Origin: a virus
DNA: 64,000 bases
Strand: one strand, 5' to 3'
Virus record (IMG/VR): IMGVR_UViG_3300048909_000109
The translations under genes and the position numbers were made by a program. Position 1 is the stretch's first letter, and each line of letters opens with the position of its first letter. Positions 16,858-40,738 of the stretch are shown here, piece by piece. The notes under the pieces are model-generated. The model saw only the letters and a list, made by a program, of their open reading frames with translations. It did not search any database and was not told the origin of the DNA.

Positions 16858-17360
16858 GGGAGTTCTACGACCTTTCGGGTAAAGTACTCGACAATATAAC
16901 CTGCCGGCGTGACCTCGTAAACTTCCGTTCGTCCAGTGCGTCCCGGATCATGTGGCTTCGTGTAGGAACCCTCAAACATCCCTAAGTGCTGAGTTGATCG
17001 GTAAGGGATTTCAAAGAAGATGCGACGAACCCATAGATCGGAATTGACCACAAGTAGAGAGCACGGAGAGCATGGACTGTGAGTAAGATAGAGGTCAACG
17101 TCAGTACCTGCCGGAAGTAACTCTCCAGCCTTACGGAGCGCGTTGGCCTCAGCATGGATAGCAGGACAATGGCCAGGGACCATGCCAGGACACTCATTAC
17201 CGAGGCAGTGTGGCTGACCAGACGCGGCCCCGTTATATCCAACACTAATTGGATTGTTAGCACACACCACCAGACTGCCAACATTAAGTCGACTGCACGT
17301 AGAACGCTTCGATGCTGCTCGAGCCATGTCCATGAACATATTTTCACGACTATACCTCAT
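16854..17360 (-). CDS. dCMP deaminase
   Basis: SVGYNG, HAEANAL, PCSPC zinc motifs. Confidence 0.92.
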   Translation of the reverse strand: MRYSRENMFMDMARAASKRSTCSRLNVGSLVVCANNPISVGYNGAASGQPHCLGNECPGMVPGHCPAIHAEANALRKAGELLPAGTDVDLYLTHSPCSPCSLLVVNSDLWVRRIFFEIPYRSTQHLGMFEGSYTKPHDPGRTGRTEVYEVTPAGYIVEYFTRKVVELP

Positions 17361-17367
17361 CTGCTAG

Positions 17368-17571
17368 TTATTCCTTCCACGGCGACAAACGCCATTCCTC
17401 GATCCACTCATTGTGCGCCGAACCATTGTGGATCCAGGAGCACTGATAGGTGATGTAGAGTGTGTTGCCCGTTGCAAGTCGAAAGTTTACAGCGCAGATG
17501 GTGACCGGCATATCCCTGTCGTTATCGACCGACATCCGATCACCGATGTCATATAGACAAGATAATTTCAT
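17368..17571 (-). CDS. Hypothetical protein
   Basis: 67 aa, ATGA-coupled within the nucleotide cluster. Confidence 0.5.
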   Translation of the reverse strand: MKLSCLYDIGDRMSVDNDRDMPVTICAVNFRLATGNTLYITYQCSWIHNGSAHNEWIEEWRLSPWKE

Positions 17572-18428
17572 CGGCTAGCTCCATACAGCATGTGGTAGTC
17601 ATTGCGAAAGATATGAAGTGACCCGATCTGCATAACAAACAGACCAGGGACAACATCGTTCCAGTCACTGTTGCAGAGACGACAAGCCTCGAGCATCCAC
17701 AGAACTAGGCGGACGGTAAGGTAGAGGTCGTCCCGGAAATGACGGACAAAGTCACACGAGCGGATGTGGTAGTTGATGTCGAGCTTTCCGTCTCGCATGA
17801 GAAAGTGGTAGCCAATTGTGCAAGGAGCGCGCTTCGACCCGCCGCCAGTGTCTTCGGGAAACCACACTGGAAGATAAGCCTGTCGCGTATATGGATCATT
17901 AGCAAGCAGCGCCACGACATCGCCTAGGTCTCCATAGTCATACATAATACCGTGATGAGGTCGCGGAAGTTCGATCTTTTTGCCCCATACATCCTGAGCG
18001 ACAGTCTCCCAATCGTCCCGGGCGGTTGTGGGAATATCAAACTTGCCAGCATGTTTCGGCCAATACCGCTCCATATAGTTGTGGTTAAACATACCTCGCT
18101 CATCAAGAAAGGATGCAGCTGATTTGCTGAATGGCCAATTCTGCCACTCAAGGCCCGGGTTGATTGGGGCACCACAAACTCGTTCGCGGAAGTGATCCTC
18201 AGCCCACGGCATGTTTGGTCTAATATCCGCAGCGTATAGATCCCGATCTTCGTGGGGTAGCGGAACACAGAAAGCTGTATGGGTCAGTTCGTGCGTAGCC
18301 ATCTCAGGTCGAGCAGCGATGTCAGCTCCCTGCCAACGCGCAGAATGCACAAGGCTGGACTTGTAGCGTAGGCGATGCGACAACTGCTCACAGGCTGCCG
18401 CGAACGTGGGGAATTGATAAGGCCTCAT
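17568..18428 (-). CDS. Thymidylate synthase (ThyA) superfamily enzyme, dCMP hydroxymethylase-like
   Basis: TRQA, RAPC, RSCDFVRHFRDD (Asp at the Asn177-equivalent position), GSLHIF. Confidence 0.85.
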   Translation of the reverse strand: MRPYQFPTFAAACEQLSHRLRYKSSLVHSARWQGADIAARPEMATHELTHTAFCVPLPHEDRDLYAADIRPNMPWAEDHFRERVCGAPINPGLEWQNWPFSKSAASFLDERGMFNHNYMERYWPKHAGKFDIPTTARDDWETVAQDVWGKKIELPRPHHGIMYDYGDLGDVVALLANDPYTRQAYLPVWFPEDTGGGSKRAPCTIGYHFLMRDGKLDINYHIRSCDFVRHFRDDLYLTVRLVLWMLEACRLCNSDWNDVVPGLFVMQIGSLHIFRNDYHMLYGASR

Positions 18429-19258
18429 TCATCGTCTCCATCCGGGTCTACATAGTCGTTGTTATGTCCAGGGTGGTTTGCCCTGAGGTAATCGATCAGC
18501 TCGCGACGGCGACGACCCTTGATGCGTTTGTCAGCATCCATCTTCACCCGAAGCGCCTGTGCGAACTTCTGGATGCCTCGATAGTGCTCCTCACATACGT
18601 AGCGAGCAGACCACTTGATGATCCAGTCATAGAAATACCGATCCTTCTTCTTAATGCGCTCGAGCTCGGCAATCGGATCCTCAAGGTGTGGGATCAGTGT
18701 CACGAAATACATCGGGTGGACTGTAACATTGGCGAAGTGACAAGTCATCCCAAGAAATTCCATGCCCGAGAAATCGAAATCCTTGAGCAGCACATCGCGG
18801 ATAAAGATCAAATCCGCAGGAAACTTCTTCAGCAGCTCAGTCGTGCGATAGAAGACGTCGATTGCATAGGAGGCGTTCTTGCCACCCTTGATCTGCGTCA
18901 GCGTCACTGACTGGATGCACGGACCCATGACCGAGGCCCGCTTCGACTTCTTCTCAGAGTCGTTCTTCACGAAGTGATTGTAGGTGGTGAAGCCCACCGA
19001 ACCATAGGACGTTTTCTTACGCCTCAGATCCCAGAGCTTCAACGCTGCAACGATAGACTCAAGATGCAAGTAGCCTCTAGTGAGGTGTCCGATCTTGTTC
19101 TTTGTGTATCCGCAGTCCTCGAGCACGAGTGGATCGTCGTCATCCCACAGGTCATGGAATGTCACGGTTCTCGGTCGAATAATCTTGCGACATCCCGAGT
19201 AGAGGTCAGCCTCGCGGCGTGACATCCGTAGGACTTCGTCGATCCACTCTTGCTTCAT
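18425..19258 (-). CDS. Divergent second ThyA-fold protein
   Basis: MGPCIQSV (PC motif), YRTTELLKKFPAD aligns with RSxD-x7-D/N; ANVTVH. Confidence 0.6.
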   Translation of the reverse strand: MKQEWIDEVLRMSRREADLYSGCRKIIRPRTVTFHDLWDDDDPLVLEDCGYTKNKIGHLTRGYLHLESIVAALKLWDLRRKKTSYGSVGFTTYNHFVKNDSEKKSKRASVMGPCIQSVTLTQIKGGKNASYAIDVFYRTTELLKKFPADLIFIRDVLLKDFDFSGMEFLGMTCHFANVTVHPMYFVTLIPHLEDPIAELERIKKKDRYFYDWIIKWSARYVCEEHYRGIQKFAQALRVKMDADKRIKGRRRRELIDYLRANHPGHNNDYVDPDGDDE

Positions 19259-19260
19259 GC

Positions 19261-19455
19261 TTATTCCTTCTCGAGGCGAGCCCGGACAAAACAGTCCTTG
19301 GCCTCGAGCAGTTTACGAAGACCCGCTGATTTCTCGGCGCAATCGGGTAGATCGTTATCCATCTGCGTTGCCAGGTCACCGCATGGACCAGACACGAGTT
19401 GAAGATGCTCAGGCAAATGGGTGTAACTGAAATGCCTCATGATTGGACTTGCCAT
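19261..19455 (-). CDS. Small helical-hairpin protein, possible Acb2/Tad1-like anti-defence sponge
   Basis: FSYTHLPEHLQ...AEKSAGLRKLLEAKDCFVRARL. Confidence 0.5.
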   Translation of the reverse strand: MASPIMRHFSYTHLPEHLQLVSGPCGDLATQMDNDLPDCAEKSAGLRKLLEAKDCFVRARLEKE

Positions 19456-19464
19456 AGATCCCTC

Positions 19465-20223
19465 TTACTGATTGGTGCCCATGAACTCTGTCTCCGGCTC
19501 GGGCACACCGAAGACCTCGTCGAAGATTGCGTTGTCGGTGACCAGATCCCTGTGGTCAGGTGCAGTCCAGCCCGGAGGCTTGCCGATGTCATACTTGGCT
19601 ACACGGCCGGTGTCAGCACAGTTGCGCTCGCCGTCGTCCTTGACTTCGACACGAACCTTTGCCATGTTGGCAGTAACGACGCGCTTCCATGCTTCAAAGA
19701 ATACCTTGCGTCCAAATTGGAGGTCGGCCGTTCCGAGCACAACCCAGATGGAGTCACACAAGGCGTCGAGCTGAAGCTCCAGTTCGTTGAGGATGTCGCG
19801 GCGATCCTTGCGTTCTACCGCATCGACGAGTTTCGGGTATTCGTCGCGGTACTCGTGAGTTTCTTCGTCATGGAACTTAGTGCGGAAATCGTGCAGGTCT
19901 TCGGGTAGCATCCGAGGCTTACCAAGATACTCCTGACCGAACTTCGCATGGAACGCGTTCACATCGCCGAGCAGGTCAGGGAAGTCGTGGTCTCGAACGT
20001 GTAGACCCTTGCTGACCATGTCGGCCTGAGCCATGAGCACCGTCTTCATCCAATGAAAACTAGGATCACTCTCACGAGGACCACGATAGTTGGCCGCACT
20101 GACAAGCATATGCCGAACGTCACCCACCTCCTCGACGCGGAACGAGAAGCGAGCAATGACTTCATCCTCAAGGTCTAGGACGTCCACCGACTGCTCGCCA
20201 ACCACTTGACGGTCATCAACCAT
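19465..20223 (-). CDS. MazG-like all-alpha NTP pyrophosphatase (DR2231/dUTPase type) with extra N-terminal domain
   Basis: DVNAFHAKFG, EETHEY, LDALCD, ANMAK, KPPGW.APD. Confidence 0.85.
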   Translation of the reverse strand: MVDDRQVVGEQSVDVLDLEDEVIARFSFRVEEVGDVRHMLVSAANYRGPRESDPSFHWMKTVLMAQADMVSKGLHVRDHDFPDLLGDVNAFHAKFGQEYLGKPRMLPEDLHDFRTKFHDEETHEYRDEYPKLVDAVERKDRRDILNELELQLDALCDSIWVVLGTADLQFGRKVFFEAWKRVVTANMAKVRVEVKDDGERNCADTGRVAKYDIGKPPGWTAPDHRDLVTDNAIFDEVFGVPEPETEFMGTNQ

Positions 20224-20234
20224 ATCTATTCCTT

Positions 20235-20726
20235 TCAGGCTTTGGTATATTCGTTGAAGAAGTGGACGGTCGAGATGAGCCGATCCATGTCATCGCCGAT
20301 GCGATAGACGAAGTGAGCATGCTGAGCAGCCCACAGACGGTACTCGTTCAGCAGAGCCTGTTGGTTCGCCGATAAGAGTTGCTGGTGCCGCTCGGTGTCA
20401 TGCGGCTTGAGTTCGTGGCCTTCATATCCCCGCTCACCCGCGTCGCAGTATATGAGAATAGGATTGCTTTCGTAGAAGAGCATCGTTCGACCAGGCGTGA
20501 TCGGGTTGCCCTCAGGACGGAACTTGCCGTAGATCGCATTGGACACGACTGGGTGGCGAACGAACAACGTTGAGACCCTTTGCTCATAGCGATCAACGCG
20601 AGCATTTATCTCTTCGTCGCTCAGTGGCGGCCCTTCACTTTCTTGGATAATGAGCTCCATATAATCAGCCATGCTCTCAGCAAGTGTGCTCTTGCCAGAG
20701 TTATCCATACCCTCAATCACGATCAT
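20235..20726 (-). CDS. dNMP kinase (thymidylate-kinase-like P-loop)
   Basis: IVIEGMDNSGKST, VRHP. Confidence 0.8.
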   Translation of the reverse strand: MIVIEGMDNSGKSTLAESMADYMELIIQESEGPPLSDEEINARVDRYEQRVSTLFVRHPVVSNAIYGKFRPEGNPITPGRTMLFYESNPILIYCDAGERGYEGHELKPHDTERHQQLLSANQQALLNEYRLWAAQHAHFVYRIGDDMDRLISTVHFFNEYTKA

Positions 20727-20743
20727 TTGGGGAACCCCGCTTG

Positions 20744-20794
20744 TTGACTTGAGTCGACAACCGGTGTTATATTCCCAGAATTCGCCAGTGTCAA
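20744..20794. promoter_or_regulatory. Overlapping divergent sigma70 promoters
   Basis: Plus: TTGACT-18-TATATT. Minus: TTGACA-17-TATAAC. The -10 boxes overlap. Confidence 0.7.
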
Positions 20795-20804
20795 CGGGGG
20801 CATC

Positions 20805-20984
20805 TTGAAACGCCTATCAGATTTCTACTCGGTGGAGGCTGCATCCAAAGCCACCGGGATCAAATATAAGACGCTCCTGCAACGCATCGCCCGAGGCAAG
20901 GTCGAAGCGCAAGAGTTTGGACGCATTAAGCTTGTTCCTGTAGCAGAGGTCGAGCGTCTGAAGAAGGAACAGGCCTCGTGTTAA
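20805..20984 (+). CDS. HTH_17/excisionase-like DNA-binding protein (not in ORF track)
   Basis: TTG start; FYSVEAASKATGIKYKTLLQRIARGKVEA...LVPVAEVERL; overlaps primase GTG. Confidence 0.7.
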   Translation: MKRLSDFYSVEAASKATGIKYKTLLQRIARGKVEAQEFGRIKLVPVAEVERLKKEQASC

Positions 20985-22894
20985 TCACGCGTATTTGGGC
21001 AGAACAACCAGGTAAATTCTTCTGCATATCGACTAAGTCGGGAAGTGGTAACTGGAAAGATCATTTCTTCTCGCCTGATGAGTTTGGTCAAATCCGTAAG
21101 TTTCTGAGGGACAACGATGACAAGGACATCTATTTCTGTCCGCACGGATTTAATCGTCGCGTTCGTCAGAAGGGAGAGGCTGTTCTTCCCAATCTGCTTT
21201 GGGCTGATCTTGACTTTGCTGATCCTAACGGCATGAAACCAAAACCGACGGTGGCTATTGAGTCATCGCCGGGCAGGTTCGTCGGCCTGTGGGTATTGAA
21301 GGATCAGATGACGGAGTCGCTCAATCGGCGACTGACATATCATCTAGACGCGGATCACGGCGGATGGGATTTGACGCAGGTTCTGCGCTTCCCAGGAACG
21401 AGGAACTACAAATATAGCTCACAACCAAAGGTGCGCGTCCTGTGGGATGATGGACCAACGTGGTCAACTAAGCGCATCGAGAAGTATTTGCCTGAAGAGG
21501 ATCCCGAGGAAGAAGGCGAAAACCTTTCAGCTGCCGAGGTATTCGAGCTGTATCAGGGAAAGCTACCTAGGTGGGTTCGGCGTGAACTGCTAGCGAAGAA
21601 GATCACCGGGAGGGCTGATCGATCTGAAATGCTATGGAAATTGGAGAATGCTTGCGTCGAGTCAGGTATGACACTCGAGGAAGCGTTCGCCGTCATCAAG
21701 GGATCAGCTTGGAACAAGTTCAAGGGACGCCGCAACGAGGACGCACAACTGAGGCGTGAGCTGTCGAAGATCGTTGAACACCAATTCAAAGAGAAACCCA
21801 AAGGTGCTGATAAGCGCCATAGGAAGGCAGATGATGAAGAGTCCGAAGAGGAGAAACGTCCTCACGGGTTCATTCGGTTTGAGTCGATGGACGATGTGAA
21901 GCAGGAAGAGCTTGACTTCATCTGGCGTCCTTACCTTGCACGAGGTGAGGTATCAATCCTCGAAGGCGATCCGGGATTGGGGAAGAGCTACCTAGCACAG
22001 ATGGTGGCAGGGTCGATTGCTACAGGACGCAGACTGATTAGTCCTTACAAGGGATCACCGAAGGTTACTGGTCCTGTCGTCTATTTCGATATGGAGAACA
22101 GTGCAGGATCAGTGACCAAGCCTCGCCTGACACAGAATGGGTTCACTGACTTCTCCGGTATGTATAACGTAGTCCAGCAACCGTTCAGCATCGATGACGA
22201 AGACGCGAAGGATTATATCTACGAAGAGTTTGAACGGATCAAGCCTGCACTCGCCGTGTTCGATACACTCAACACCTACATCGGTAAGGCTGACACCCAT
22301 AAGGGATCGGAGGTAGCTCAGGCATTTGGGTTCTTCATGCAGCTAGCTCGTGACTTCAACTGCTCGGTACTTGTGCTGCGTCACCTTGTCAAAGGTGGAG
22401 GGTCAGCGATCTATCGAGGTCAAGGCTCAATCACATTCGCCGGACTCGCTCGCGTCGTTATGTCTGTGGGCGTAGATCCTGATGACACGGACACTCGGGC
22501 AATGGCAATCACCAAGATGAACTTTGCCAAGCCCCCACAGGCATTGACGTTCCGCATCGAAGAACGGAAGAAGGGTGCATCCGAGTTTGTATGGGGTGAC
22601 TTCGTTAACCTCTCATCGCAGGAAATCATGGATGCCGCTGCTGAGGCACGAGCCGAAGGAAAGCAGGGAACTGGGATGCAAGATGCGATGGAATTCCTAG
22701 AGGCTACGATCACCAACGCTGCAACTGACATACAGAAGCTGTATAGGATGGGTGAGAAACGGTCAATCTCTCAGAAGATGATTGATCGTGCAGCCTCGAA
22801 GATGAACGTTACGAAGAAGACGCGAGGAAAAGGTAGGGAGCGCGTCGAAACGTGGGAAATTAAGTCCGATGACGAAGAGGATACCGAAGAATGA
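20978..22894 (+). CDS. Primase-helicase (RepB/AEP-like primase plus AAA_25 helicase)
   Basis: LWADLD, SSPGR, LRFPGTRN; GDPGLGKS Walker A, VFDTL, LRHL. Confidence 0.9.
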   Translation: MLITRIWAEQPGKFFCISTKSGSGNWKDHFFSPDEFGQIRKFLRDNDDKDIYFCPHGFNRRVRQKGEAVLPNLLWADLDFADPNGMKPKPTVAIESSPGRFVGLWVLKDQMTESLNRRLTYHLDADHGGWDLTQVLRFPGTRNYKYSSQPKVRVLWDDGPTWSTKRIEKYLPEEDPEEEGENLSAAEVFELYQGKLPRWVRRELLAKKITGRADRSEMLWKLENACVESGMTLEEAFAVIKGSAWNKFKGRRNEDAQLRRELSKIVEHQFKEKPKGADKRHRKADDEESEEEKRPHGFIRFESMDDVKQEELDFIWRPYLARGEVSILEGDPGLGKSYLAQMVAGSIATGRRLISPYKGSPKVTGPVVYFDMENSAGSVTKPRLTQNGFTDFSGMYNVVQQPFSIDDEDAKDYIYEEFERIKPALAVFDTLNTYIGKADTHKGSEVAQAFGFFMQLARDFNCSVLVLRHLVKGGGSAIYRGQGSITFAGLARVVMSVGVDPDDTDTRAMAITKMNFAKPPQALTFRIEERKKGASEFVWGDFVNLSSQEIMDAAAEARAEGKQGTGMQDAMEFLEATITNAATDIQKLYRMGEKRSISQKMIDRAASKMNVTKKTRGKGRERVETWEIKSDDEEDTEE

Positions 22895-22925
22895 GGGTCC
22901 CGCACTTTCCTGGTGCGAGACCCTC
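22893..22925. terminator. Hairpin at the primase 3' end; U-rich tail on minus strand
   Basis: GAGGGTC(C)CGCAC...GTGCG(A)GACCCTC. Confidence 0.5.
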
Positions 22926-23155
22926 GGCAGAGACTCATTGGGGGTCCTGATCGGTCTTGAGCCCCGCGTCGATCAGGCGGATGTTCGGGGCATCGTCTTC
23001 ATAGTCACCTCCTTATGTGTCGAGCTCCCCGCTCGGGGGACGGTCGATAACGGCACGTTGACCTAAGAGCATAATCGCGCACCGGTCGCCGTTCGTCAAC
23101 CACCGCATTCTGACTTAATCTGCACCAGAAAATGCCAGTAGTGGCAATTAGACGA

Positions 23156-23210
23156 TTGACGCCGGATTGCCAGGTGTTTATAGTGGCAGTTGCGTCAATC
23201 ACGACGCAAT
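23156..23210 (+). promoter_or_regulatory. Early promoter with extended AATCAC-loop hairpin
   Basis: TTGACG-17-TATAGT then TTGCGTC-AATCAC-GACGCAA. Confidence 0.75.
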
Positions 23211-23225
23211 GTGGAGGCACATCAA

Positions 23226-23918
23226 ATGAACGACTTGGCGAAGTTAAACCGCCTGCGCGTTAACGCGGGTAAGAAAGAACTGAAGGCATGGAAAGCCGAT
23301 CAGTCAAAGCTCGACGAAGCGGTGAAGACACTTGAAGATGCGGGCTTCACCGATGCACTGCCCGGCGCGAACCCTGACGCCGAACCCGTGATCGAAGATC
23401 CTGAGGTCGCCGCGGCTCGTCCCGCTGAGGAGCCGGCGCCTAAGAAGGAGCCGACGAAAACGAACGGTAAGCCGTCACTCGCTCGCGGTCTCGACACGGA
23501 AAGCTATGCTCATCATTCTCGCAAGGCAGTCCGCGATATTCGCGAGAAAGAGAAGAAGGAAAAGAAGCAAGAAGCTGCACAGCTCAGTCCCGAGGACAAG
23601 CAGCAGATCAAGGACGAGGCGAAGCGCCGCAAGGGTGACCTCGATCCGAAGACTGCGAAGGGCAAGCGCCAGAAGCAGCACATCGCCGACAAGCAGGCGA
23701 AGCGCAAGGCTGAAGGCAAGACTGCCAAGTCACGGGAGAAGAACGCGGATGAAGTCACAGTCGCCGACATCGCCCGCGAACTCAACATCGACCCGAAGAT
23801 CGCTCGGGCGAAGATGCGCCGCTACGAAGGCAAGGACAATTACCCGAAGCCTGTCAAGGGTGAACGCTGGACGTTCCCGAAGTCGGCGAAGGCGGCAATC
23901 GCCAAGATCCTCAAGTAA
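23226..23918 (+). CDS. Lys-rich protein with C-terminal HTH-Trp domain
   Basis: GGAGG RBS; ADIARELNIDPKIARAKMR...RWTFP. Confidence 0.75.
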   Translation: MNDLAKLNRLRVNAGKKELKAWKADQSKLDEAVKTLEDAGFTDALPGANPDAEPVIEDPEVAAARPAEEPAPKKEPTKTNGKPSLARGLDTESYAHHSRKAVRDIREKEKKEKKQEAAQLSPEDKQQIKDEAKRRKGDLDPKTAKGKRQKQHIADKQAKRKAEGKTAKSREKNADEVTVADIARELNIDPKIARAKMRRYEGKDNYPKPVKGERWTFPKSAKAAIAKILK

Positions 23919-23948
23919 ACGCTCGCAGAATATAGTGGCACTGGCGAG

Positions 23949-23999
23949 TTGATCGCCGGTGACCACTATGCGATAACCTACAGGTTGCAATCACGCAAC
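23949..23999 (+). promoter_or_regulatory. Early promoter with +1 hairpin
   Basis: TTGATC-17-GATAAC-6-GTTGC AATCAC GCAAC. Confidence 0.7.
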
Positions 24000-24010
24000 G
24001 GAGGATAACG

Positions 24011-24871
24011 ATGTCCGATCTTGAAGAAATCGCCAAGGCTAAAGCCAAGATAGCGAAGCTGATGAACATGACCGTCGAGAACGGGTGTTCAGAGGACGAG
24101 CAGGAAACGGCAATGTCCATGGCTGCGGCAATCGCTACCCGTTTGGGTATCGAACTGTCGTCGATCCAAGCCGCCACAGGTGGTACTACGAAGCGCAAGG
24201 CAACGAAGAAAGCCTTCAATCAGGCCTGGAAGATACACCAGGTCCTCGCGTTCCAGGCAGCCGGCGAGCTGTATGGTTGCGAGCTCTACACCTACAATCA
24301 TGGTAAGAGCGGATGCTACTTCATCGGCCGCGAGGAGAACATCGAGCTCGCTGAACAGACTGCGTTCTGGCTCATGCGTCAGGTCGAGTTGCTCTACAAG
24401 CAGAGTCTGCCTCGTGGCATGACGCAGGCTGCTCGAGCTGAGTATCGCCGCACGTTCAAAGCCGCCTGTGCATACCGCGTCAATGAGCGAGCCATAAAGC
24501 TCATGCGGGAAATGCAGTTCAACAACGAAGTGGCTCAGAAGACCACAGGCTCGACAGCGCTCGTGGTTCAGGACTACTTCAAGACCCTGCGCCAGGAGAT
24601 TGCGGACTACTACAAACCGACGCCGGAAGAAGAGGCCCGCTGGGAGCAGCAGCGTCTCGAACGTCAGCGCCGTGAGGAAGAACGCCGCAATGCGCTCACA
24701 CCATACGAACGCGAGCAGGAAGACAAGGCACTTGCAGCTCAGCGCAAGAAGGATGAACGCGCAGCAGCACGACGCAAGGGACCTCGGCCTCGCAGACTGC
24801 CGATGGGAAGCGGATCGAGTGCGGGCTTTGCCGCCGGCGACAGCGTTCAGCTCAGGAAGGAGATACGTTGA
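24011..24871 (+). CDS. DUF2786-domain protein
   Basis: KIAKLMNMT..NGCSEDEQETAMSMA N-terminus; GGAGG RBS. Confidence 0.75.
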   Translation: MSDLEEIAKAKAKIAKLMNMTVENGCSEDEQETAMSMAAAIATRLGIELSSIQAATGGTTKRKATKKAFNQAWKIHQVLAFQAAGELYGCELYTYNHGKSGCYFIGREENIELAEQTAFWLMRQVELLYKQSLPRGMTQAARAEYRRTFKAACAYRVNERAIKLMREMQFNNEVAQKTTGSTALVVQDYFKTLRQEIADYYKPTPEEEARWEQQRLERQRREEERRNALTPYEREQEDKALAAQRKKDERAAARRKGPRPRRLPMGSGSSAGFAAGDSVQLRKEIR

Positions 24872-25065
24872 TGCCAAAGGTCGTCAAGACCATGGCCTTC
24901 ATTGTGGATGATGTCACCTATACGGACATCAAGGAAGCAGAGAAGGCCATCCGCACCGCGATCATTCAAGAGGAGATAGATATCTCTCATGGTGACGCTG
25001 CTCAGGTTGCTGAGCAATGGGATGACATCCAGAACAAAGTCAAGGAAGCGATGAGGGGGCTGTAA
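24868..25065 (+). CDS. Hypothetical protein
   Basis: Coupled ORF, AGGAG RBS. Confidence 0.55.
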   Translation: MMPKVVKTMAFIVDDVTYTDIKEAEKAIRTAIIQEEIDISHGDAAQVAEQWDDIQNKVKEAMRGL

Positions 25066-25469
25066 TGGCTTGGAAGTATATCATGCTGCACGACCTGGAA
25101 CGGGATCGGTTCGTGCCTATCATTTTTCCCGACGACTTGGTCCATTCATTCGTTGCCGGCGCCATGCAGTTGGTGATCGAAGCGAACGATCCGAAGAAGG
25201 ATCTACGACCGCGTCAGCTCGAGCAAATGCTCGAACGAGGAACTGCACCTGTGGTCGGCGCGGGTTTCGTCGAAGGCATGGCAGTCTGTGTAGCAATTGG
25301 TGAGAGTGAAAGCTTAGGCATCAAGTCTCGCCCCGAGGATACCCAACTCATCAACAACCATCCATACGAGAAGGGTATGGTCGGATTGGCAGGCGACACC
25401 ACAGAGTTGTTGATCCTGCAGCGGACCATCGAACTGCTGATGACGCGGATGAAAGAAATAACCGGTTGA
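25065..25469 (+). CDS. Hypothetical protein
   Basis: TAATG coupling, 134 aa. Confidence 0.6.
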   Translation: MAWKYIMLHDLERDRFVPIIFPDDLVHSFVAGAMQLVIEANDPKKDLRPRQLEQMLERGTAPVVGAGFVEGMAVCVAIGESESLGIKSRPEDTQLINNHPYEKGMVGLAGDTTELLILQRTIELLMTRMKEITG

Positions 25470-25516
25470 CTCTTGGCATCCGCACATTCATAATGCCCAT
25501 GTTGCAATCACGCGAC
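25466..25516 (+). promoter_or_regulatory. Early promoter with +1 hairpin
   Basis: TTGACT-17-CATAAT-6-GTTGC AATCAC GCGAC. Confidence 0.8.
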
Positions 25517-25526
25517 GGAGAAAGCT

Positions 25527-26024
25527 ATGACGTTCGTTCTCTATGCCCGAGGTCACCGAGCACCGGATATCTATCCGCGTGACCACATCGTTAAGTTCGA
25601 CGACGCATCCCATGCTAAGGTGTGGCTCGAGCGAATGGAGCATAACCTACCCGAGGGGTTCACTGTCAAATCGCAGCAGATGGATCAGATCCGTGCTGCG
25701 CCGTCGACTGACTGGCAGTTGCCGGACGAACGTCTGCAATGGATCCTTCGCTTCAAGTATGGCACATGGGATGAGGTGCATGTGAAGGATGAGCCCGAGG
25801 TCGCTGATGCCAAGCAATCGAAGGACCGCCCGGGGGCTAAGCGTGTATCACGAGCGCAGCGTCCTGACGGTTTCGTGACGATCACTGAGCTGTGCGCTGC
25901 CTCAGGCGTTGCTGCGAGCGATGCGCGAGCGATATTGCGAGCGAACTTCGAGAAGCCTGAATACGGCTGGGCGTTCGCACCGAAGGAAGTGGCGAAGATC
26001 AAGAAGTTGGTCGGGATTAAGTGA
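25527..26024 (+). CDS. HTH-Trp family protein; full-length paralog of 45768-46490
   Basis: FVLYA...LRFKYGT...ITELCAASGV..SDARAILR...YGW. Confidence 0.7.
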   Translation: MTFVLYARGHRAPDIYPRDHIVKFDDASHAKVWLERMEHNLPEGFTVKSQQMDQIRAAPSTDWQLPDERLQWILRFKYGTWDEVHVKDEPEVADAKQSKDRPGAKRVSRAQRPDGFVTITELCAASGVAASDARAILRANFEKPEYGWAFAPKEVAKIKKLVGIK

Positions 26025-26031
26025 GGAACAT

Positions 26032-26298
26032 ATGAAGACCCGTTGGATAGTTCAGAAGTCTCATAAAGTCGCCGGACCGGGTGAGTACGAAGTGGCAACG
26101 CTCGAAGAACTGCGTCAACTCATGCAGGACAGAGCAGACTCGTATATCTCCACAGATGAGCATCCGCCGCTCGGTGAACTCGAGTTCCGCTATGAGTTGG
26201 ACGATGGTGATGAACCGTTCATCATCCATGTCTACTTCTACAACAAGCACGGCGACCGTTCGCGGTTTGCAAGGCTGGTCCGCGATGACGATGTTTGA
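26032..26298 (+). CDS. Hypothetical protein
   Basis: GAGGA RBS before ATG 26032. Confidence 0.55.
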   Translation: MKTRWIVQKSHKVAGPGEYEVATLEELRQLMQDRADSYISTDEHPPLGELEFRYELDDGDEPFIIHVYFYNKHGDRSRFARLVRDDDV

Positions 26299-26503
26299 TC
26301 CCGAACCAAATGAGTGCGCTGGCTGTCTGCGTAAGATATCCGCGCCTAATGTCTGGTTGTGTGACCCGTGCGTATCGATAGCTGTAGAGGCTGGGTTCGA
26401 AGCCACGCCGTATCATCACCCGGGCAAAGAATGCACTGACTTCCTGTGGAACAAAGCGATGGAGAGACAACGTGCCGAGGCAACGAAGCGTAGTGATGGA
26501 TAA
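26291..26503 (+). CDS. Small Zn-finger-like protein
   Basis: CAGC...CDPC. Confidence 0.5.
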   Translation: MFDPEPNECAGCLRKISAPNVWLCDPCVSIAVEAGFEATPYHHPGKECTDFLWNKAMERQRAEATKRSDG

Positions 26504-26750
26504 GCATGACGCGAAGTCACTCCATGACGCGGCTATAAAACGATCTACCAAGCTGTATAGCCCGTATGAGTCAGTTGCGGGAGAGCTCGCCGGTGTCGAT
26601 CCTGACGTCTACGCAGTTGTCTATCGTGCGCCTCTGGGCGGTGATCGCTACGTAGTCGCAACACGAACCCGCGCTGACAACGCCAAGAAGCTTCGAGACC
26701 TGCTCAATCAAGCTTGGGCTGAAGGTCATTGGTCCTCGGGTCGAGGATAA
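26496..26750 (+). CDS. Hypothetical protein
   Basis: Coupled ORF. Confidence 0.5.
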   Translation: MDKHDAKSLHDAAIKRSTKLYSPYESVAGELAGVDPDVYAVVYRAPLGGDRYVVATRTRADNAKKLRDLLNQAWAEGHWSSGRG

Positions 26751-26765
26751 ATCAGAATTGGACAG

Positions 26766-26816
26766 TTGATTGATAGTCACCAGGATCGTATAATGTCCAG
26801 GTTGCAACGACGCAAC
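26766..26816 (+). promoter_or_regulatory. Early promoter with +1 hairpin
   Basis: TTGATT-17-TATAAT-6-GTTGC AACGAC GCAAC. Confidence 0.8.
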
Positions 26817-26832
26817 ACGAAAGGAATTGACC

Positions 26833-27854
26833 ATGTCCGTGACCTTTACATGCCGCAAGCTGTCTGACCGCGTCGATGATTTCCGGTGCAACGAGACCGG
26901 CGTTCATTATCAGATCGAACGCACTGGCGACGGCTACGTGATCCTCAACTCCGGCAACGTGGTTGCTCACCGCACCGAACGGCCGATGGCTGTCACCTAC
27001 ATCGAACAACAGGCCGAACTCGACTTCCGCACCGCGCAGGCCGAGTCCGCGTTCGCTAACGATTGCGGCGCATGGCCTGTGGGAAGCTGCTAATGACCGT
27101 GCGCGATTATTTCGAGATAGCCTTTCACGACTATCTTGGGTGTCACTCGGACCAATCCGTCCGTGACGCGCTCAGCTCCATGCCGCTCGACAGCACCTGT
27201 GGTGATGATTGCAAGGCCGCAATCGACGCGGGTGCCGTTCTCCAATATCATGTGCGCCGCGGATATGGCGATGATCGTCCTGAGCTGATCTATCCGATTG
27301 CTCAGGCCGTCGCCGACACCTGCTGCGTATTCATCTGTGGGTGATATGATGGAAATCCGCTTCAAGACCCATGCCGTGACGGAAATCAACAAGCTCCCGC
27401 ATGTGAAGGCTCGGCTCGAGACCTTCGACCCTGATGAATTGCGGGTAACGTTCCGCGGTCTGTCGAAGGATCGCGAGGAAGCCGTCGCATACTACACAAC
27501 AGATCCACAGGACGCTTATGACACGGCCGTCCAGATGGAGAAGAACTGGAGGACGCAATGCCATTAGAGCCTTATGAGGAATTGAAGCAGATCCGTTCGC
27601 AGCCGTTGCCCGGCGGACATGGTCGTATTCAACGCCGTCTTGAACGTGAACGGCAGCTGTCCGACCAGATCGTAGAGAGTCTGTTCGTGCAGATGAACGA
27701 CTGCGAGGGTGCTCGTGGTCTATTCGAGCTCTACATGGAACTGCTATGCGGAAAGGATGTCGATGATCCCGGCATCGTCTTGACTGAGCCGTTCCTGTCG
27801 CTCTGGAAAGATTATCATCCAGACGATGATGGTGAAGAAATCACTGGCGAATAA
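26833..27854 (+). other. Run of four small coupled hypothetical CDSs (26833-27093, 27093-27344, ~27346-27567, 27558-27854)
   Basis: Abutting or overlapping ORFs with RBSs downstream of the 26766 promoter. Confidence 0.55.
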
Positions 27855-27857
27855 CGG

Positions 27858-27908
27858 TTGCATCCTGGTAGCCACGCGCATATAATGTCCGTATCGCAAC
27901 AACGCGAT
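27858..27908 (+). promoter_or_regulatory. Early promoter with +1 hairpin
   Basis: TTGCAT-17-TATAAT-6-ATCGC AACAAC GCGAT. Confidence 0.8.
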
Positions 27909-27919
27909 GGAGACTTGAA

Positions 27920-29085
27920 ATGTTTGATGTCCATGCTTACCTCCGTGCCGAATTCCGTCGGTACTATCCCGATGCACCGCGCATCGATGTCCATGAGGGT
28001 GATGAAGTCTGGGACATTGGTGTTCACCTGCCGGGCGGAACGATCCTGAAATGGCATATGGATGTCGGATCCGACGACGAATGCTTCCGCTTCATGGGTG
28101 AATATGGGAACGAGCTGACCGTGCCGTTCGCGCCCGAGATGTCCGCATGAGGAACGATCCCAACATCATGGACCTGTCGTTTCCTATGGACGGGTTGGTC
28201 GTAACGTTCGTGGATCCTTGGTTCGTGAACGCCTACGGAACCTCATTCATGGGCGACAGTCCCGAAGACGTCATCCGACAGGCCGACGCTTACGGCGAAC
28301 TTCACGGCCGTCGCGCTATGACGCTGATCCCATTCCAGATCAAGGAACCGTCGTGAGCATCTTCAGAGACCATGCGTTCGGGTATAACACAACCGAGAAG
28401 CAAGAACGGGAACGTGAGCTTCGCCGGCGCATCAACGAGAACCTGAAGAATATCTATTCGGGCAAGTACCGTCGGGAAGCCGACGCGAAGCGCAAGGACA
28501 AGCGCACGGAACTCGAAAAGGCCACAGCCAACGAAATTGCGATGGGCAACATGGTGCTTGAGCGCCGTGACCTCGACAAGAAGCTCAAGCGACTGTTGCT
28601 GAAGCAGGACTTGAAAGGCGCCGAGCTCGAATACGCTGAAGACCTGCAGATGCGCGTCGATCAACTCGACGAAGAGCTCTCGGGCTACACGCAGGACGAA
28701 TTGCGGCGATTTGTCAGGCTATGGAACAAGTCGCGGAAAGCGAAGTACAGGCTATGACCTTCACCCGTGACGAAATCGCCGTGCTCGCATTCTTCTTTGG
28801 CCTCATGGCCTTAATGTTCGTAGGGAGTCTATCATGAAGTATAAGTTCCTCGCATTCTTGCTCGTGGTGAATGAGGTCTCTGGACTCGCAATCGCCGCAA
28901 CATCGCATAGCCAAAAGGCTTTCGGTCAAACGATCCTCGGAGGTATTGGAACAGTCGTCGGGCTCGGGATCCTGTGGCTGTTCGCTCGTCTAGGCTTCTT
29001 CCGCGGTCTCAAGTTCAAGCACTACGTCTTCCTGCTGTCATGTGTGCTGATCGCTGGAGCTGCAGGGTACTTCATCGGCCGATAG
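27920..29085 (+). other. Run of small CDSs (27920-28150, 28147-28356, 28353-28757 coiled coil, 28754-28837 and 28834-29085 membrane proteins)
   Basis: ATGA/GTGA-coupled ORFs; last two hydrophobic. Confidence 0.55.
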
Positions 29086-29086
29086 A

Positions 29087-29644
29087 TCAGTCGTCGTCCT
29101 CGTTCGACAGCCGCCAATAGCTGCGCTTGTTGTCGCCGAAACCTTCCTGCGTCTTGACTACCCCAATCATACGTGCTGCCTTTCGGAGCGCGCGTTCCGT
29201 ATAGCCGCCGCAGTTTGCAGGCTTCCGGAGCTCGTCCCAGAACATTCCCTTCCGCCCGAGGGTTAAGCGTAGGAAATTAGCTGCGCCATCGACACTGTAA
29301 GTTTCGGCCTCTATCACGCCGAGAAACTCTTCGCTCTGTGGAACTCGCTGTAGCGCTTCCATCACCTTGCGCCTGTGTCGTGCTGTGAACCCGCGTCTGC
29401 CGTGAAGACCTGTGATCGCAGACTTGATGACGTCTCGAAGCACCAAGTTCCACCACCATTGCCGGGGAGGGTTCGTCGTCCATTTTGTCCAGGTAGATCG
29501 GGAAATGTCCAGCATGTAGGCGCACTTTGAGCCATTCTCTTTGAAGAGCTCGAATAGAACATCCGTCAGAGCATTGAACTCGTCTACATCCAGTTTTGGC
29601 TTCCGGATTTTCACTTTGACATTTCGTCTTGTAGATTTTTCCAT
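29087..29644 (-). CDS. Two-domain DNA-binding protein (HTH plus helicase-type winged helix)
   Basis: CAYMLDISRSTWTKW HTH; GYTERALRKAARMIGVVK...YWRL resembles the primase-helicase C-terminus. Confidence 0.6.
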   Translation of the reverse strand: MEKSTRRNVKVKIRKPKLDVDEFNALTDVLFELFKENGSKCAYMLDISRSTWTKWTTNPPRQWWWNLVLRDVIKSAITGLHGRRGFTARHRRKVMEALQRVPQSEEFLGVIEAETYSVDGAANFLRLTLGRKGMFWDELRKPANCGGYTERALRKAARMIGVVKTQEGFGDNKRSYWRLSNEDDD

Positions 29645-30419
29645 CTTGTAGTTTTTCCTAGCGCTATATACACACCAGATTGTCGATTTCGCGGTTTTTC
29701 ACTCAAGAGTAGTGCCGAAATAGGACCAGATTGGCATTTCCGTATGGCATTTTACAGGAAGAGCGCCTTAGTGTCAATACGGAACAAATCTTGAGTAAAA
29801 ACCTACAAAAACTACAATAACTGGACTGTTCGCGCATGGGCAAACCCGTAACAGGATTGGATCTATGCAGACCAGGATCGTGATTTTAGGGGAGAAAAGA
29901 CCAGCTGGACCAGCCGAGAGACGGACCAATATGAGCCACGTAATTACGTGATAGACTAGGTAGAGCTGTATAGCCTGCAACTGTATAGGACGGGTATGGA
30001 CCAGCCAGTACTCTGACCAACTTCTCTACAGCAAGACTTGATCGAGACAAGTTCAGACGAGCGGAATGCTTACAACTAATTACGTGTCGGTTGGTCCAAC
30101 CAGCATGTGAAGTGTTTATAGTGCGGCTGCTGTGGGCAATAATCTGCGTGCTGGCCATATGGATCTATCTGCACCTACACCTTCAACTGTATAGCCAGGG
30201 TAAGCAATAGTTGGTCCAGCCGTAAGATTAGCCAAGCCATGGTTGGCCCAGCCGCTGAACGCTGGCCGTCCCACATGGACATACTACACGTGGCTGGCCC
30301 ACCCGCTGAACGGATTATGGTTAAGCCAAACTTAATGGTAACCAAATATGGTTAAGCCAGCGCAGCGGAATTGTTAACCATATTCCGTCCCAATACGAGA
30401 CAGAGAAAAAAGAAATGGC
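29645..30419. repeat. Non-coding block with short direct repeats and CtrA-type boxes (origin/terminus candidate)
   Basis: TAATTACGTG x2, CTGTATAG x3, TGGCCCA(G/C)CCGCTGAACG x2, TTAACCAT x3. Confidence 0.55.
30320..30335. promoter_or_regulatory. Consensus CtrA box
   Basis: TTAA-GCCAAAC-TTAA; reads TTAA-N7-TTAAC on minus strand. Confidence 0.75.
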
Positions 30420-30473
30420 TTATTGATTTGTTAATAGATTGCGCGCATATTGTGATTGTCGCAATGACGCGAC
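30420..30473 (+). promoter_or_regulatory. Promoter with CtrA-like box and +1 hairpin
   Basis: TTAT-N7-TTAA over TTGATT-17-CATATT-6-GTCGC AATGAC GCGAC. Confidence 0.75.
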
Positions 30474-30490
30474 ATCGAAAGGAAATGAAC

Positions 30491-30775
30491 ATGCCTGCAC
30501 GTAAATCAACGACGTTCCCGATTGTGCTCAAGTCGATCATCAACGACGCGCACAAGGATAACAAGTCGTTCACGTTGAACGACAAACAAATCCGTTCGCG
30601 TTTGCGTTCGAAGGTTGCATCGCACATTCGCAACACTTCATGGGTTGCGAACAATCAACGCGAATATGATGCAATCCGCGCCGCGTTCGACACTACCTAT
30701 GCCGCCAAAATCGCTCGTCCTGCGCGTTCGCGCAAGTCGACGAAAAAGGCGAACGTCGAAACGACTGACGCCTAA
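30491..30775 (+). CDS. Basic DNA-binding protein, divergent HTH-Trp-like
   Basis: AAAGGA RBS; DKQIRSRLR...TSW. Confidence 0.6.
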   Translation: MPARKSTTFPIVLKSIINDAHKDNKSFTLNDKQIRSRLRSKVASHIRNTSWVANNQREYDAIRAAFDTTYAAKIARPARSRKSTKKANVETTDA

Positions 30776-30912
30776 TGCCGTTACGTGTCGCGCATGACTG
30801 TCCGTTGTGCGCGACACAACCTGCCTCTGATGCGCGTTACATGAAATGCCCTGTGCATCCGTCGTGTTCCGTAATGTGACCTTCACTGACGCGCATCTTT
30901 TTCTATCCGTCC

Positions 30913-30944
30913 GTAACGATTTCTTAATCTGTTGCACGTATACT
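30913..30944 (+). promoter_or_regulatory. CtrA-type promoter
   Basis: GTAA-N7-TTAA ending 11 nt before TATACT; no canonical -35. Confidence 0.6.
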
Positions 30945-30972
30945 GTGAACATCGAAACGAAAGGAACTGACC

Positions 30973-31083
30973 ATGATCCGCATTGTTCAAATCGCCGTTC
31001 CGCTCTACGTGTTCTACTGTCTGATCCCGTTGCTGTCGAACTTCTATCACACCATGACCACGCTATCGAACGTCCTGCCTTAA
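30973..31083 (+). CDS. 36-aa hydrophobic peptide (not in ORF track)
   Basis: AAAGGA RBS; MIRIVQIAVPLYVFYCLIPLLSNFYHTMTTLSNVLP. Confidence 0.55.
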   Translation: MIRIVQIAVPLYVFYCLIPLLSNFYHTMTTLSNVLP

Positions 31084-37527: not shown

Positions 37528-37558
37528 GGGGACGGTGCTTCGGTGCCGTCCCCATTTT
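37528..37558 (+). terminator. Terminator with C-UUCG-G tetraloop
   Basis: GGGGACGGTGC TTCG GTGCCGTCCCC ATTTT. Confidence 0.75.
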
Positions 37559-38142: not shown

Positions 38143-39764
38143 ATGGAGTGCACAATGCGAGGCAGACGCCGGATCACGATTGTTCACGGGGCGGGAGCGG
38201 ATGTCAAGGAGTCTTTCACTCGCGGCGGCATCACCTACCATCTTCGGAAGGCCTCACTGTATCCACCGGTGAAGGGTGCAGTCGAGGCAGTTTATACGGT
38301 TTCTGGGGTCCCGGCCCAACCAAGGACAAGAACGGGGAGGATTACTCGTGCCAGGCGTCTCGCGAGTAGAACTGACGGGCAGTAAGCCTTTCATCGAGTT
38401 TCGCACCGACCTTGATCGGTACTTCGTCTGCTTCCCACGGGAGGGCGTCGAGCTGGTCATGGGCTTCGAGTGCAAGCATACAGCTAGGGAGATAGCTGCC
38501 AACGTGTGCGCGGGCACACCGTTCTTCACTGCGATCCCTGTGGTTCCATATAGGACAGAGTATCCTAGACCTTGGCTCGTATATCCCAAGGTAAGAGAAA
38601 TCCGGGATGCGATACACCTCGAGGTAGTTGACACCGGCACGTTAAAACGTTAGAAGGCTCGCGTCGCAATCATGCGACAGAAGGAGCCCCCTATGACGAC
38701 CACTGTAACCGTCAGAGCTCGTGCTCACGGAGCCACCGTCGAAGTCGATGGCGAGACGACCGAAGTCGCCCCGAACCGTGAACACAGCTTCCACATCGCC
38801 GAAGGGACCAAGTCCTTCTCGGTGACGCAGCCTGCCGAAGCGCCTGCATCCGAAGGTTTCGTCGATGAAGCCACCGGAACCGACAGCGCCGAAGTTCCCG
38901 GCCGCACTCAGAACGACGAACTGCTCGGTCAAGGCGGCAAGCGCAAGGCGCCGCAACCACCGACCGGCAATCAGTCGGGGGCAGGAGCCGCAGACCAGCA
39001 GGTCTAACGCACCTTCTACTCGACGAGGGGTCGCGGTCCCCCGCCTCCCAAGCCCACCGCGGCCCCTCACCGTCGGAGCATCCCATGAAAAAGAACAAGA
39101 TCCCCAAGTCAGCGATAACCGAAAAGCAGCTTCGGCGTTTGCTTAGGGAAGCGGCACGAGAGTCGACCCTTAGCTCATGGGCAACGGATAACGACATCAC
39201 GCCGCAAGCAGCCTCAGCCTTCATGCGTAAGGCTCAGACCGCAGGGTTGCAAATACCTGAGGCCCTAGGTTATTATCCTCAGACGATTTACCTGCCGCTC
39301 GACGAGGAACCTATCTCGACGAAGCCGCCGTCACGATCACCACCGCCAAAGAAAAAGAGACGCTAATGCCGCTGCTATTCTATGGTCGACTTGAGCACGG
39401 CGAACCGAGACAGCTCTACTCGAAGGATCTTCGACCGATTGAGAGCGAGGTATTCGACAACTACAAGGTCAAGCACCTTGCGCCGTATCACCAGCGATCA
39501 GACCTCGCGAACCTGTGGTGGTTTAAAGACCGCAATCATACAGCGGTATCCTGGAACGAGTGCCGGATCGACATCACCTTGCACCGCGGAATCATCGCCA
39601 ACGAGACGATGAAGTTCAAGGAGCAAACAATCTTCATCCCGCAACTGATCGGGCACATGGAAGCCTTGGAGATAATGCGGACCGAGTTCCCAGACTACTT
39701 GGTACCGGGCGCAATCGTCTTCAGGTTCAACAATCAAGATGGGGCATATAGATACCATGATTAA
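38143..39764 (+). other. Small hypothetical CDSs (38143-38385, ~38276-38653, 38693-39007, 39085-39366 HTH-like, 39366-39764)
   Basis: Successive plus-strand ORFs, some with RBSs. Confidence 0.5.
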
Positions 39765-40674: not shown

Positions 40675-40738
40675 TCCAGTTGCTCCCGGGACGTCTTGGT
40701 CGCATAATCAACGCATCGAAACGCAACGGAGAACAAAC

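Follow-up and report, generated by a model that had tools for sequence, protein, structure and literature searches.

A covarying hairpin with a conserved AAYNAC loop at the predicted transcript start of repeated phage promoter cassettes

Here, we describe seven promoter cassettes in a 64-kb stretch of phage DNA (IMG/VR virus record IMGVR_UViG_3300048909_000109; at its full length referred to as the window). Each consists of a sigma70-like promoter, a short hairpin whose first stem nucleotide lies 6 nt past the -10 box, which is the usual +1 position, and a ribosome-binding site. The stem of the hairpin covaries among related phages, its apex GC-AAYNAC-GC is conserved, and the cassette is present in phages that share no detectable protein with the window. 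The reading that we favor on balance is that of a promoter-coupled 5'-terminal RNA hairpin, which would protect and insulate the start of the mRNA and carry a sequence-specific apex for a putative reader. An earlier note on this DNA had proposed a protein-recognized RNA element at the 5' end of transcripts: the sense-strand covarying structure with its base at the predicted +1 makes the 5'-terminal RNA element the best reading, while recognition of the loop by a protein is something that we only infer.

Conservation and covariation of the hairpin

A strict search of the window, covering both strands, for any 5-bp stem (G-U pairs allowed) with an AAYNAC hexaloop gave exactly six matches (23192, 23984, 25501, 26801, 27893, and 30458), all on the plus strand. 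All six hairpins listed in the earlier note were thus recovered with the positions and sequences given there, and the fixed 6-nt gap behind promoters with 17-nt spacers, which it had claimed for five of them, held for the six: each match lies 6 nt 3' of a TTGAYN-17-NANNNT promoter, or 7 nt if the 5-bp core of the extended variant at 23190 is considered. Likewise, GGAG was found next to the 3' arm at 23984, 25501, and 27893, where a Shine-Dalgarno sequence had been noticed. A covariance model built on 48 distinct hairpin copies (see below) ranked the same six hairpins on top (19.5–24.5 bits), and its next match in the window, at 38663–38678, added a seventh cassette. The sequence GCAAYNACGC occurs seven times in the window as compared to 1.19 ± 1.04 times in shuffled sequences, and none of 100 shuffles reached seven; two of the seven matches (40512 and 59055) have neither promoter nor paired stem and, from the positions of open reading frames (ORFs) only, look like chance matches within genes. 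Other sigma70-like promoters of the window, located at 20744, 34502, 37729, and, on the minus strand, 29777, have no hairpin, which implies that the hairpin marks a subclass of promoters.

Primase-based searches of IMG/VR yielded about 20 related contigs, 14 of which were fetched whole, and a promoter weight matrix trained on the standard copies was used to gather promoter-linked hairpins. The resulting 71 copies (48 distinct) came from 12 related contigs, and the distinct ones were used for the covariance model. The copy number is 7–11 per genome, and the promoters of the cassettes follow the consensus G-TTGA(C/T)-N17-TAT(T/A)(G/A)T. In relatives with a primase identity of about 56% or more, the motif is clustered 3' of the primase gene and strand-biased, with forward versus reverse counts of 11 versus 1 in contig G007, 9 versus 1 in G008, and 8 versus 0 in G012. 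One clear copy was found in G010 (36% primase identity), and the motif was absent from G015, G016, and Brevundimonas phage Strzyga, which lacks any GCAAYNACGC hairpin. Strzyga and Polewnik, both Brevundimonas phages, are the closest cultured relatives (54% primase identity), and the gene order of Strzyga is the same as that of the window.

Among the 48 distinct 16-mers, loop positions 1, 2, 5, and 6 as well as the closing C-G pair are invariant, loop position 3 is U in 44 copies and C in 4, and position 4 may be any base. This invariance arises partly by construction, since copies were gathered by an apex search. A check that left the loop sequence free considered every promoter-like site with a 5-bp stem and 6-nt loop of any kind at an offset of 5–7; nearly all of these loops conformed to AAYNAC, which implies that the apex is also under sequence selection. 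The loop variants seen were AATCAT, AATGTC, and AATAAT. Within the stem, pair 4 is G-C in 41 copies, U-A in 5, A-U in 1, and G-U in 1, and pair 3 is C-G in 23, U-A in 14, G-C in 5, G-U in 3, and mismatched in 3. For the two outer pairs, pairing is seen in two thirds of the copies, the rest mostly showing the A-A/A-A internal loop of a long class described below. Paired cells amounted to 85.4% as compared to 64.4 ± 1.9% in column shuffles, double-change cells to 56 as compared to 18.4 ± 4, and the covariation score to 0.522 as compared to 0.154, and none of 500 shuffles reached any of these values. With the partner slid by 1–3 columns as a control, 15–39% were paired. A separate test of the three outer pairs gave 75.7% paired as compared to 47.4%, with none of 10000 shuffles as high. 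The conserved loop and compensatory stems seen in the earlier note were therefore borne out by the 48 distinct copies. The compensatory nature of the changes is visible in single cassettes, too: in cassette 1 the second apex pair is T-A in place of G-C, and at the position of cassette 2, which was matched across relatives by its rank as second promoter behind the primase, by the resemblance of the upstream flank, and by homology of the downstream gene, the outer stem is ATC/GAT in G004 and G002, GTC/GAC in G008, and GTT/AAC in G012, G013, and the window.

The cassette was also found beyond these relatives. The pattern TTGA-N30-32-ATCGCAAYNACGCGAT occurred in 26 IMG/VR stretches on 20 contigs, as compared to one match for a control with the reversed 16-mer. 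For 12 of the 20 contigs, the fetched stretches share no detectable protein with the window, and these carriers comprise a group with a P22-type portal, the HK97-like contig L128, and contig L121 with 44% GC. Contig L128 has three copies around its packaging genes, and one drives a terS-terL-portal-protease operon. Thus, the element is neither limited to one lineage nor strictly 'early', a label that had been an assumption of the earlier note and does not suit a cassette driving a terminase-portal operon. The cassette is also better conserved than its neighboring genes. A cultured phage carrying the cassette was not encountered among the isolates closest to the carriers; phage DSL-LC05, the isolate closest to the P22-like carriers, has none in 30 kb out of a genome of 37.6 kb. 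In 185,579 bacterial and archaeal species genomes, the promoter-spaced pattern gave 2 matches as compared to about 1.6 expected by our own estimate; as this is chance level, no host was inferred and no sign of host use is seen. The sole host-gene context met, probably a chance match, is on a contig of a Sulfuricella metagenome-assembled genome (L142, CAZGOY010000007.1, about 3791–3841, minus strand), where the exact 16-mer ATCGCAATAACGCGAT lies 6 nt past a promoter-like TTGAAC-17-TAACAT and before a gene for an AhpC-like peroxiredoxin. About half of 68 metagenome stretches containing ATCGCAAYNACGCGATGGAG are cassettes, and the rest, judged by flanking sequence only, look like coding coincidences in conserved host genes.

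Position of the hairpin and its proposed role in the mRNA

In the standard class, the stem base lies 5–7 nt past the -10 box. Of the 48 distinct copies, 42 begin their stem with a purine, very often the A of ATC; promoters of Strzyga, which have no hairpin, likewise show ATC at the predicted +1. The stem length ranges from 5 to 11 bp. Folding by minimum free energy from the -10 box onward caught weak G-U pairs with the Shine-Dalgarno sequence, which blurred the stem base, and was replaced by a stricter helix-extension rule with a shuffled control. In a long class of 27 copies, the invariant apex lies 11–17 nt past the -10 box, whereas this distance is 9 nt in the standard class. Complementary sequence has been added on both sides in 24 of the 27, as in ATCGA-AAC-GC-AATNAC-GC-GAA-TTGAT, and the helix reaches back towards the -10 box with a stem-base mode of 5–6 nt past it; when the 3' flank was shuffled, about three quarters of the copies had no helix extension. 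The shift of the apex together with the lengthening of the stem implies that it is the stem base that keeps its distance from the promoter, with the apex free to move. Furthermore, at the promoter P1, which precedes the 230-aa gene behind cassette 1, a hairpin 6 nt past the -10 box is kept in 12 genomes while the sequences of loop and stem drift, the loops being AATCAC, AATGAC, GATCCT, AATAAT, ATCAAT, AATTCAA, AAAAAC, GATAAT, AATT, and AACGAC. Hence, P1 keeps the structure as its loop drifts, and the loop of the other cassettes is near-invariant. On the side of the gene, GGAG adjoins the hairpin in 26 of 44 standard copies, the Shine-Dalgarno sequence is found 0–14 nt past the hairpin and the start codon 6–27 nt past a 5-bp hairpin, and the median length predicted for the 5' untranslated region (UTR) is 29 nt.

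We propose that the host-type, sigma70-like promoter of each cassette gives rise to a transcript beginning with the hairpin. As the stem begins at the predicted +1, such an mRNA would have no single-stranded 5' tail, and its paired 5' end might shield the short phage mRNAs from 5'-end-dependent decay (of the RNase E/RppH or RNase J type) and might keep the adjoining ribosome-binding site clear of upstream sequence. The constrained apex GC-AAYNAC-GC may in addition be the address for a putative trans-acting factor, of phage or host, which would co-regulate stability or translation of every tagged transcript. The transcription start, the action as RNA, and both functional steps, protection and reading, are what we infer here from sequence. 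A transcript with a paired 5' end would account for the register of the long class, the retention of the hairpin at P1, and the purine or ATC as first base, whereas an operator in duplex DNA accounts for none of the three.

Several points weigh against this proposal. The +1 is predicted from promoter geometry alone, the stability of the hairpins is no more than moderate (folding energies of the window copies, -4.4 to -9.1 kcal/mol; z-scores, -1.8 to -4.6), and a plain stabilizer would need no conserved loop. Several stems of G003 are interrupted by a mismatch with GCAAYNACGC left untouched, which points to a sequence constraint beyond structure. Moreover, 6 G-U pairs stand against 9 A-C mismatches, which gives no clear strand-specific RNA signature. 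Finally, in about a third of the copies pairing could continue into the discriminator or -10 box, which are not transcribed, and this is either noise or relevant to read-through RNA only. With regard to start sites, the ends of the 68 metagenome stretches with ATCGCAAYNACGCGATGGAG were checked, and no contig begins at the stem base.

As a separate observation, the untranscribed -10 box and discriminator (e.g., TATTGTGTTTTT) are in some relatives complementary, with many G-U pairs, to the GGAG/start-codon region past the hairpin; such sites are present at oriented positions 77, 1610, 61133, and 62641 of L036–L039 (G002), at 40446 in G008, at 23329 in G012, and at 16098 in G007. In read-through RNA from an upstream promoter, the extended hairpin could bury the ribosome-binding site, which would be impossible in RNA from the cassette's own promoter; the complementarity may also be due to chance.

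A further-reaching idea, which we consider possible but doubtful, is that the apex on its 5'-terminal stem serves as a portable address label, read on the first nucleotides of the transcript by a conserved trans-acting factor (host or small phage protein), and that unrelated phages acquired or converged on the 16-mer for a privileged fate of their mRNA, e.g., escape from RNA decay that is host-encoded or induced by the phage, or priority in ribosome loading. If true, this would be a new and widespread module of RNA-protein recognition in phage gene expression. Phage early regions are rich in tiny genes of obscure expression logic, and the cassette is a compact unit of promoter, 16-nt hairpin, and ribosome-binding site that is under clear structural selection, repeated 7–11 times per genome, and common to phages without genes in common. 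If the hairpin stabilizes or tags mRNAs, it would explain post-transcriptional co-regulation of a whole block of accessory genes and would provide synthetic biology with a natural insulated expression cassette for Alphaproteobacteria-type hosts; a specific reader, should it exist, would be a new RNA-binding activity. The long class additionally shows how sequence data can distinguish an RNA hairpin from an operator with no other evidence: displacement of the conserved apex comes with a longer stem, the base of which remains at +1.

Alternative explanations and comparison with known systems

The alternative that survives best, though unlikely, is a DNA operator, retained here as it was in the earlier note: GCAAYNACGC or the whole 16-bp inverted repeat would be a duplex site just past the -10 box, at which a phage repressor, e.g., an HTH-Trp protein, shuts off the promoter class as a whole. 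The stronger constraint on the apex sequence than on pairing in G003 would fit such a site, as would the fact that G-U is not favored over A-C. Candidate repressors are encoded nearby: three window cassettes precede Lys/Arg-rich members of the HTH-Trp family, and members are likewise encoded directly behind cassettes in the unrelated L128 and in the distant relative G010, which has four copies, two of them each following a promoter with a +1 hairpin (GCATCA-AACGAAA-TGATGC in the case of the second). The domain (23715–23918 and 25860–26024 in the window, 16122–16340 in L094, and 5666–6007 in L128) shows the pattern VA.LAREL.IDPKIARRRMR ... RYEY/RWTF ... helix and has no match in Pfam or PHROG; its structural model (pLDDT 81, strand-helix-helix-strand-helix) weakly resembles small DNA-binding winged helices, the best matches being BldC, RacA, the MerR family, and RdfS excisionase (E 0.2–1, TM about 0.5). 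However, a duplex site requires neither complementary flanks nor their covariation, and it leaves unexplained that a helix fills the gap when the apex shifts 5–8 bp from the -10 box and that the hairpin is retained at orthologous P1 despite sequence drift. Additionally, the centre AAYNAC is asymmetric, unlike that of a dimer operator, and HTH-Trp proteins are also present in the hairpin-less Strzyga. Covariation, register, and the drift at P1 thus weaken the operator.

Because of their DNA-binding, winged-helix-like fold and their presence in Strzyga, the HTH-Trp proteins are weak candidates for a reader of the RNA hairpin; they are a lead only and, if anything, favor the operator. The phyletic profile of a reader gene was also considered: small ORFs restricted to hairpin-bearing genomes (30485–30775, 37784–37945, 39085–39366, and 39739–40674, based on tblastn, which is insensitive for short proteins) were found, none of which has a telling family. 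The ORF at 39739–40674 is a small ATP-dependent ligase-like gene with ligase adenylation and OB domains that is present in hairpin-bearing relatives, and tblastn found none in Strzyga, G010, G015, and G016.

Regarding known operators, that of Caulobacter SciP is GCGNC-N5-GNCGC with the half-site GCGAC, located 60–90 bp upstream of the start (PMC4287350). It was rejected, since GCGNC fits 5 of 48 3' arms and both arms fit in 2 of 48, the half-sites are here in the everted order GNCGC-N6-GCGNC, and their location is the predicted +1.

Processive antitermination of the nut/boxB type, suggested in the earlier note, is quite unlikely. The nascent hairpin would here recruit an N-like phage protein or, put-like, act on RNA polymerase, so that terminators are read through. 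Lambdoid nut sites comprise boxA and boxB bound by N and Nus factors; boxB is a 5-bp stem with a GNRA-like pentaloop (GAAAA/GAAGA/GACAA type), boxA (CGCTCTTA-like) lies a few nt 5' of it, and N, which has an N-terminal arginine-rich motif, is encoded downstream of nutL. The hairpin resembles nut and the put sites of HK022 in being a small element predicted on nascent RNA just past the promoter, with a short covarying stem, a conserved A-rich loop, and several copies per genome, and the first gene behind cassette 1 encodes a very basic protein with an Arg-rich helix and then an aromatic residue. In contrast to boxB, the loop is the hexaloop AAYNAC in 48 of 48 distinct copies and never a GNRA-like pentaloop, and with a stem base 5–7 nt past the -10 box there is no transcribed sequence for an upstream boxA, only the Shine-Dalgarno sequence being conserved 3' of the hairpin. 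Whereas nut lies tens to hundreds of nt downstream, the hairpins are at the predicted +1, with 7–11 copies per genome and each before a short operon with its own promoter, and there appear to be few terminators to override: in a simple scan of 20–40 kb no convincing intrinsic terminator was detected between cassettes, the sole strong one being at 37528. No N-type protein was found; the conserved domain of the basic protein models as a winged helix with weak MerR, BldC, and RacA matches and not as an arginine-rich peptide. Membership in boxB/nut was therefore rejected on loop type, boxA, and position.

Two further candidates were dismissed. N4-type promoters have no sigma70 boxes; instead, a giant virion RNA polymerase reads a DNA hairpin that lies upstream of +1 and has a 3-nt loop. 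Here, by contrast, the loop has 6 nt and lies 3' of canonical -35 and -10 boxes; the largest ORF of the window (1278 aa) belongs to the tail region, and none of the scanned proteins was recognized as an RNA polymerase. A sigma70-dependent pause element was rejected by inspection, because the loop keeps C where a -10-like element requires T.

The functionally closest analogues might be 5'-terminal stabilizer hairpins and translational operators next to the Shine-Dalgarno sequence. The hairpin of the ompA 5' UTR was reportedly described as a 5'-terminal stabilizer by Emory, Bouvet and Belasco in 1992. Such stabilizers act via structure alone, so that any stable stem works, and engineered 5' hairpins tune mRNA half-life. 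The cassettes share with them a hairpin without unpaired 5' nucleotides at the (here predicted) mRNA start and the short distance to the ribosome-binding site; unlike in ompA-type stabilizers, a specific apex is conserved across dozens of phages, suggesting an additional reader. Phage translational operators include the T4 gene 43 operator (a 5-bp stem with an 8-nt loop by the Shine-Dalgarno sequence), the RegA/RegB targets, and the coat-protein hairpins of MS2 and PP7. They are similar in that a short hairpin with a sequence-specific loop stands beside the ribosome-binding site, suited to repression by a bound protein, but they are single autoregulatory sites (or, for RegA, unstructured ones) and are not tied to the transcript start.

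The motif itself appears to be undescribed, in agreement with the earlier note: Rfam 15 has no family at the hairpins, a permissive search of 22900–31000 gave three chance-level matches (E above 2) with none on a hairpin, and a literature search found no published description. By analogy, the nearest described kind is the promoter-early stem-loop (PeSL) cassette of T4-type phages, in which a strong sigma70-type promoter with a stem-loop is repeated in intergenic regions among small variable genes of unknown function and is better conserved than its neighbors; the stem-loop is a G-run/C-run terminator with a variable position relative to the promoter (five subclasses) and without a conserved loop, and the cassettes have been proposed to provide short homology for recombination that shuffles small genes (PMC2839356, PMC4122927). 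Here, too, an intergenic sigma70-like promoter is repeated many times (seven in the window, 71 in 12 relatives), but the stem is placed at the predicted +1 without a U-tract behind it, the 5-bp stems are of mixed sequence, the loop and closing pairs are near-invariant, and GGAG or another Shine-Dalgarno sequence comes next.

Following this precedent, the repeat could be a mobile regulatory cassette kept mainly as short homology for the shuffling of accessory genes, with little role of the hairpin in expression; this is very unlikely, since homology-driven exchange selects identity and not compensatory change, and selection on the structure itself is indicated by covariation, by stems that vary in length on a fixed base, and by the pairing kept at P1 despite a drifting loop. 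The variability of the genes behind the cassettes would fit such shuffling (clustering of the 83 encoded proteins gave 48 groups, many with a single member, and their occurrence across relatives is patchy), as would near-identical cassettes in unrelated phages and the 94–97% identity of the 36-nt unit of cassette 5 in G007, G008, and G014, where the flanking genes are not alignable as DNA. As for PeSL-type indel junctions, the downstream genes are very variable and the relatives too diverged to map them. Shuffling as a side effect is compatible with a 5'-terminal RNA hairpin.

The seven cassettes and other elements of the window

The window encodes a family A DNA polymerase (14254–16857, minus strand), a helicase, a primase-helicase (20978–22894), a terminase, and a portal protein, and a block of small plus-strand genes sits 3' of the primase. 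The sequence runs listed for 23100–30600 are root and soil metagenome DNA, with no RNA run among them. The coordinates of the cassettes are given in Table 1.

Table 1. Promoter boxes, hairpins, and following genes of the seven cassettes in the window (all plus strand).
Cassette	Span	-35	-10	Hairpin	GGAG 3' of the hairpin	Following gene
1 (extended variant)	23156..23208	TTGACG 23156-61	TATAGT 23179-84	TGCGTC-AATCAC-GACGCA (6 bp) 23191-23208		230-aa Lys-rich HTH-Trp gene, 23226-23918
2	23949..23999	TTGATC 23949-54	GATAAC 23972-77	GTTGC-AATCAC-GCAAC 23984-23999	adjoins	DUF2786/DUF7168 gene, 24011-24871
3	25466..25516	TTGACT 25466-71	CATAAT 25489-94	GTTGC-AATCAC-GCGAC (one U-G pair) 25501-25516	adjoins	HTH-Trp gene, 25527-26024
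4	26766..26816	TTGATT 26766-71	TATAAT 26789-94	GTTGC-AACGAC-GCAAC 26801-26816		ORF 26833-27093
5	27858..27908	TTGCAT 27858-63	TATAAT 27881-86	ATCGC-AACAAC-GCGAT 27893-27908	adjoins	ORF 27920-28150
6	30423..30473	TTGATT 30423-28	CATATT 30446-51	GTCGC-AATGAC-GCGAC 30458-30473		ORF 30485-30775
7 (new)	38628..38678	TTGACA 38628-33	TAGAAG (-10-like) 38651-56	GTCGC-AATCAT-GCGAC 38663-38678	38682-85, 3 nt past the hairpin	ORF 38693-39007 (ATG 38693)

The hairpin of cassette 1 folds with -9.1 kcal/mol (z -4.0). Cassette 6 has the top score of the covariance model (24.5 bits), and at the homologous gene most relatives carry a cassette of the long class with 8–10 bp, e.g., ATCGAAAC-GC-AATNAC-GC-GxTCGAT. 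Cassette 7 is outside the range of the earlier note; its loop ends in U, so that pairing of A1 with U6 is possible, which would give 6 bp with the tetraloop AUCA and -7.2 kcal/mol.

Two other elements of the window were noticed. The intrinsic terminator at 37528–37553 (11-bp GC stem, UUCG loop, and U-run) lies just 5' of the hairpin-less promoter at 37729. At 40686–40740, ATCGAAACGCAACGGAG stands between a promoter (TTGCTC-17-CATAAT-caacgc) and an ATG; this element begins as the long-class hairpins do (ATCGAAAC-GC), without loop and 3' arm, and looks like a decayed or half cassette. Half elements resembling it are present in G003, G007, G008, G011, and G014.

In Strzyga (L046, ON529867), the region 16800–22000 contains syntenic promoters of the form TTGACC-17-TATGAT-GTCTTC-ATCAAC... 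in which the initial ATCA(A/C)C is conserved and the GCAAYNACGC hairpin is missing. The Strzyga promoter before the small annotated ORF at 16900–17133 is followed by ATCGAC-N15-GTCGAT, the loop of which contains the Shine-Dalgarno sequence and which ends at the ATG.

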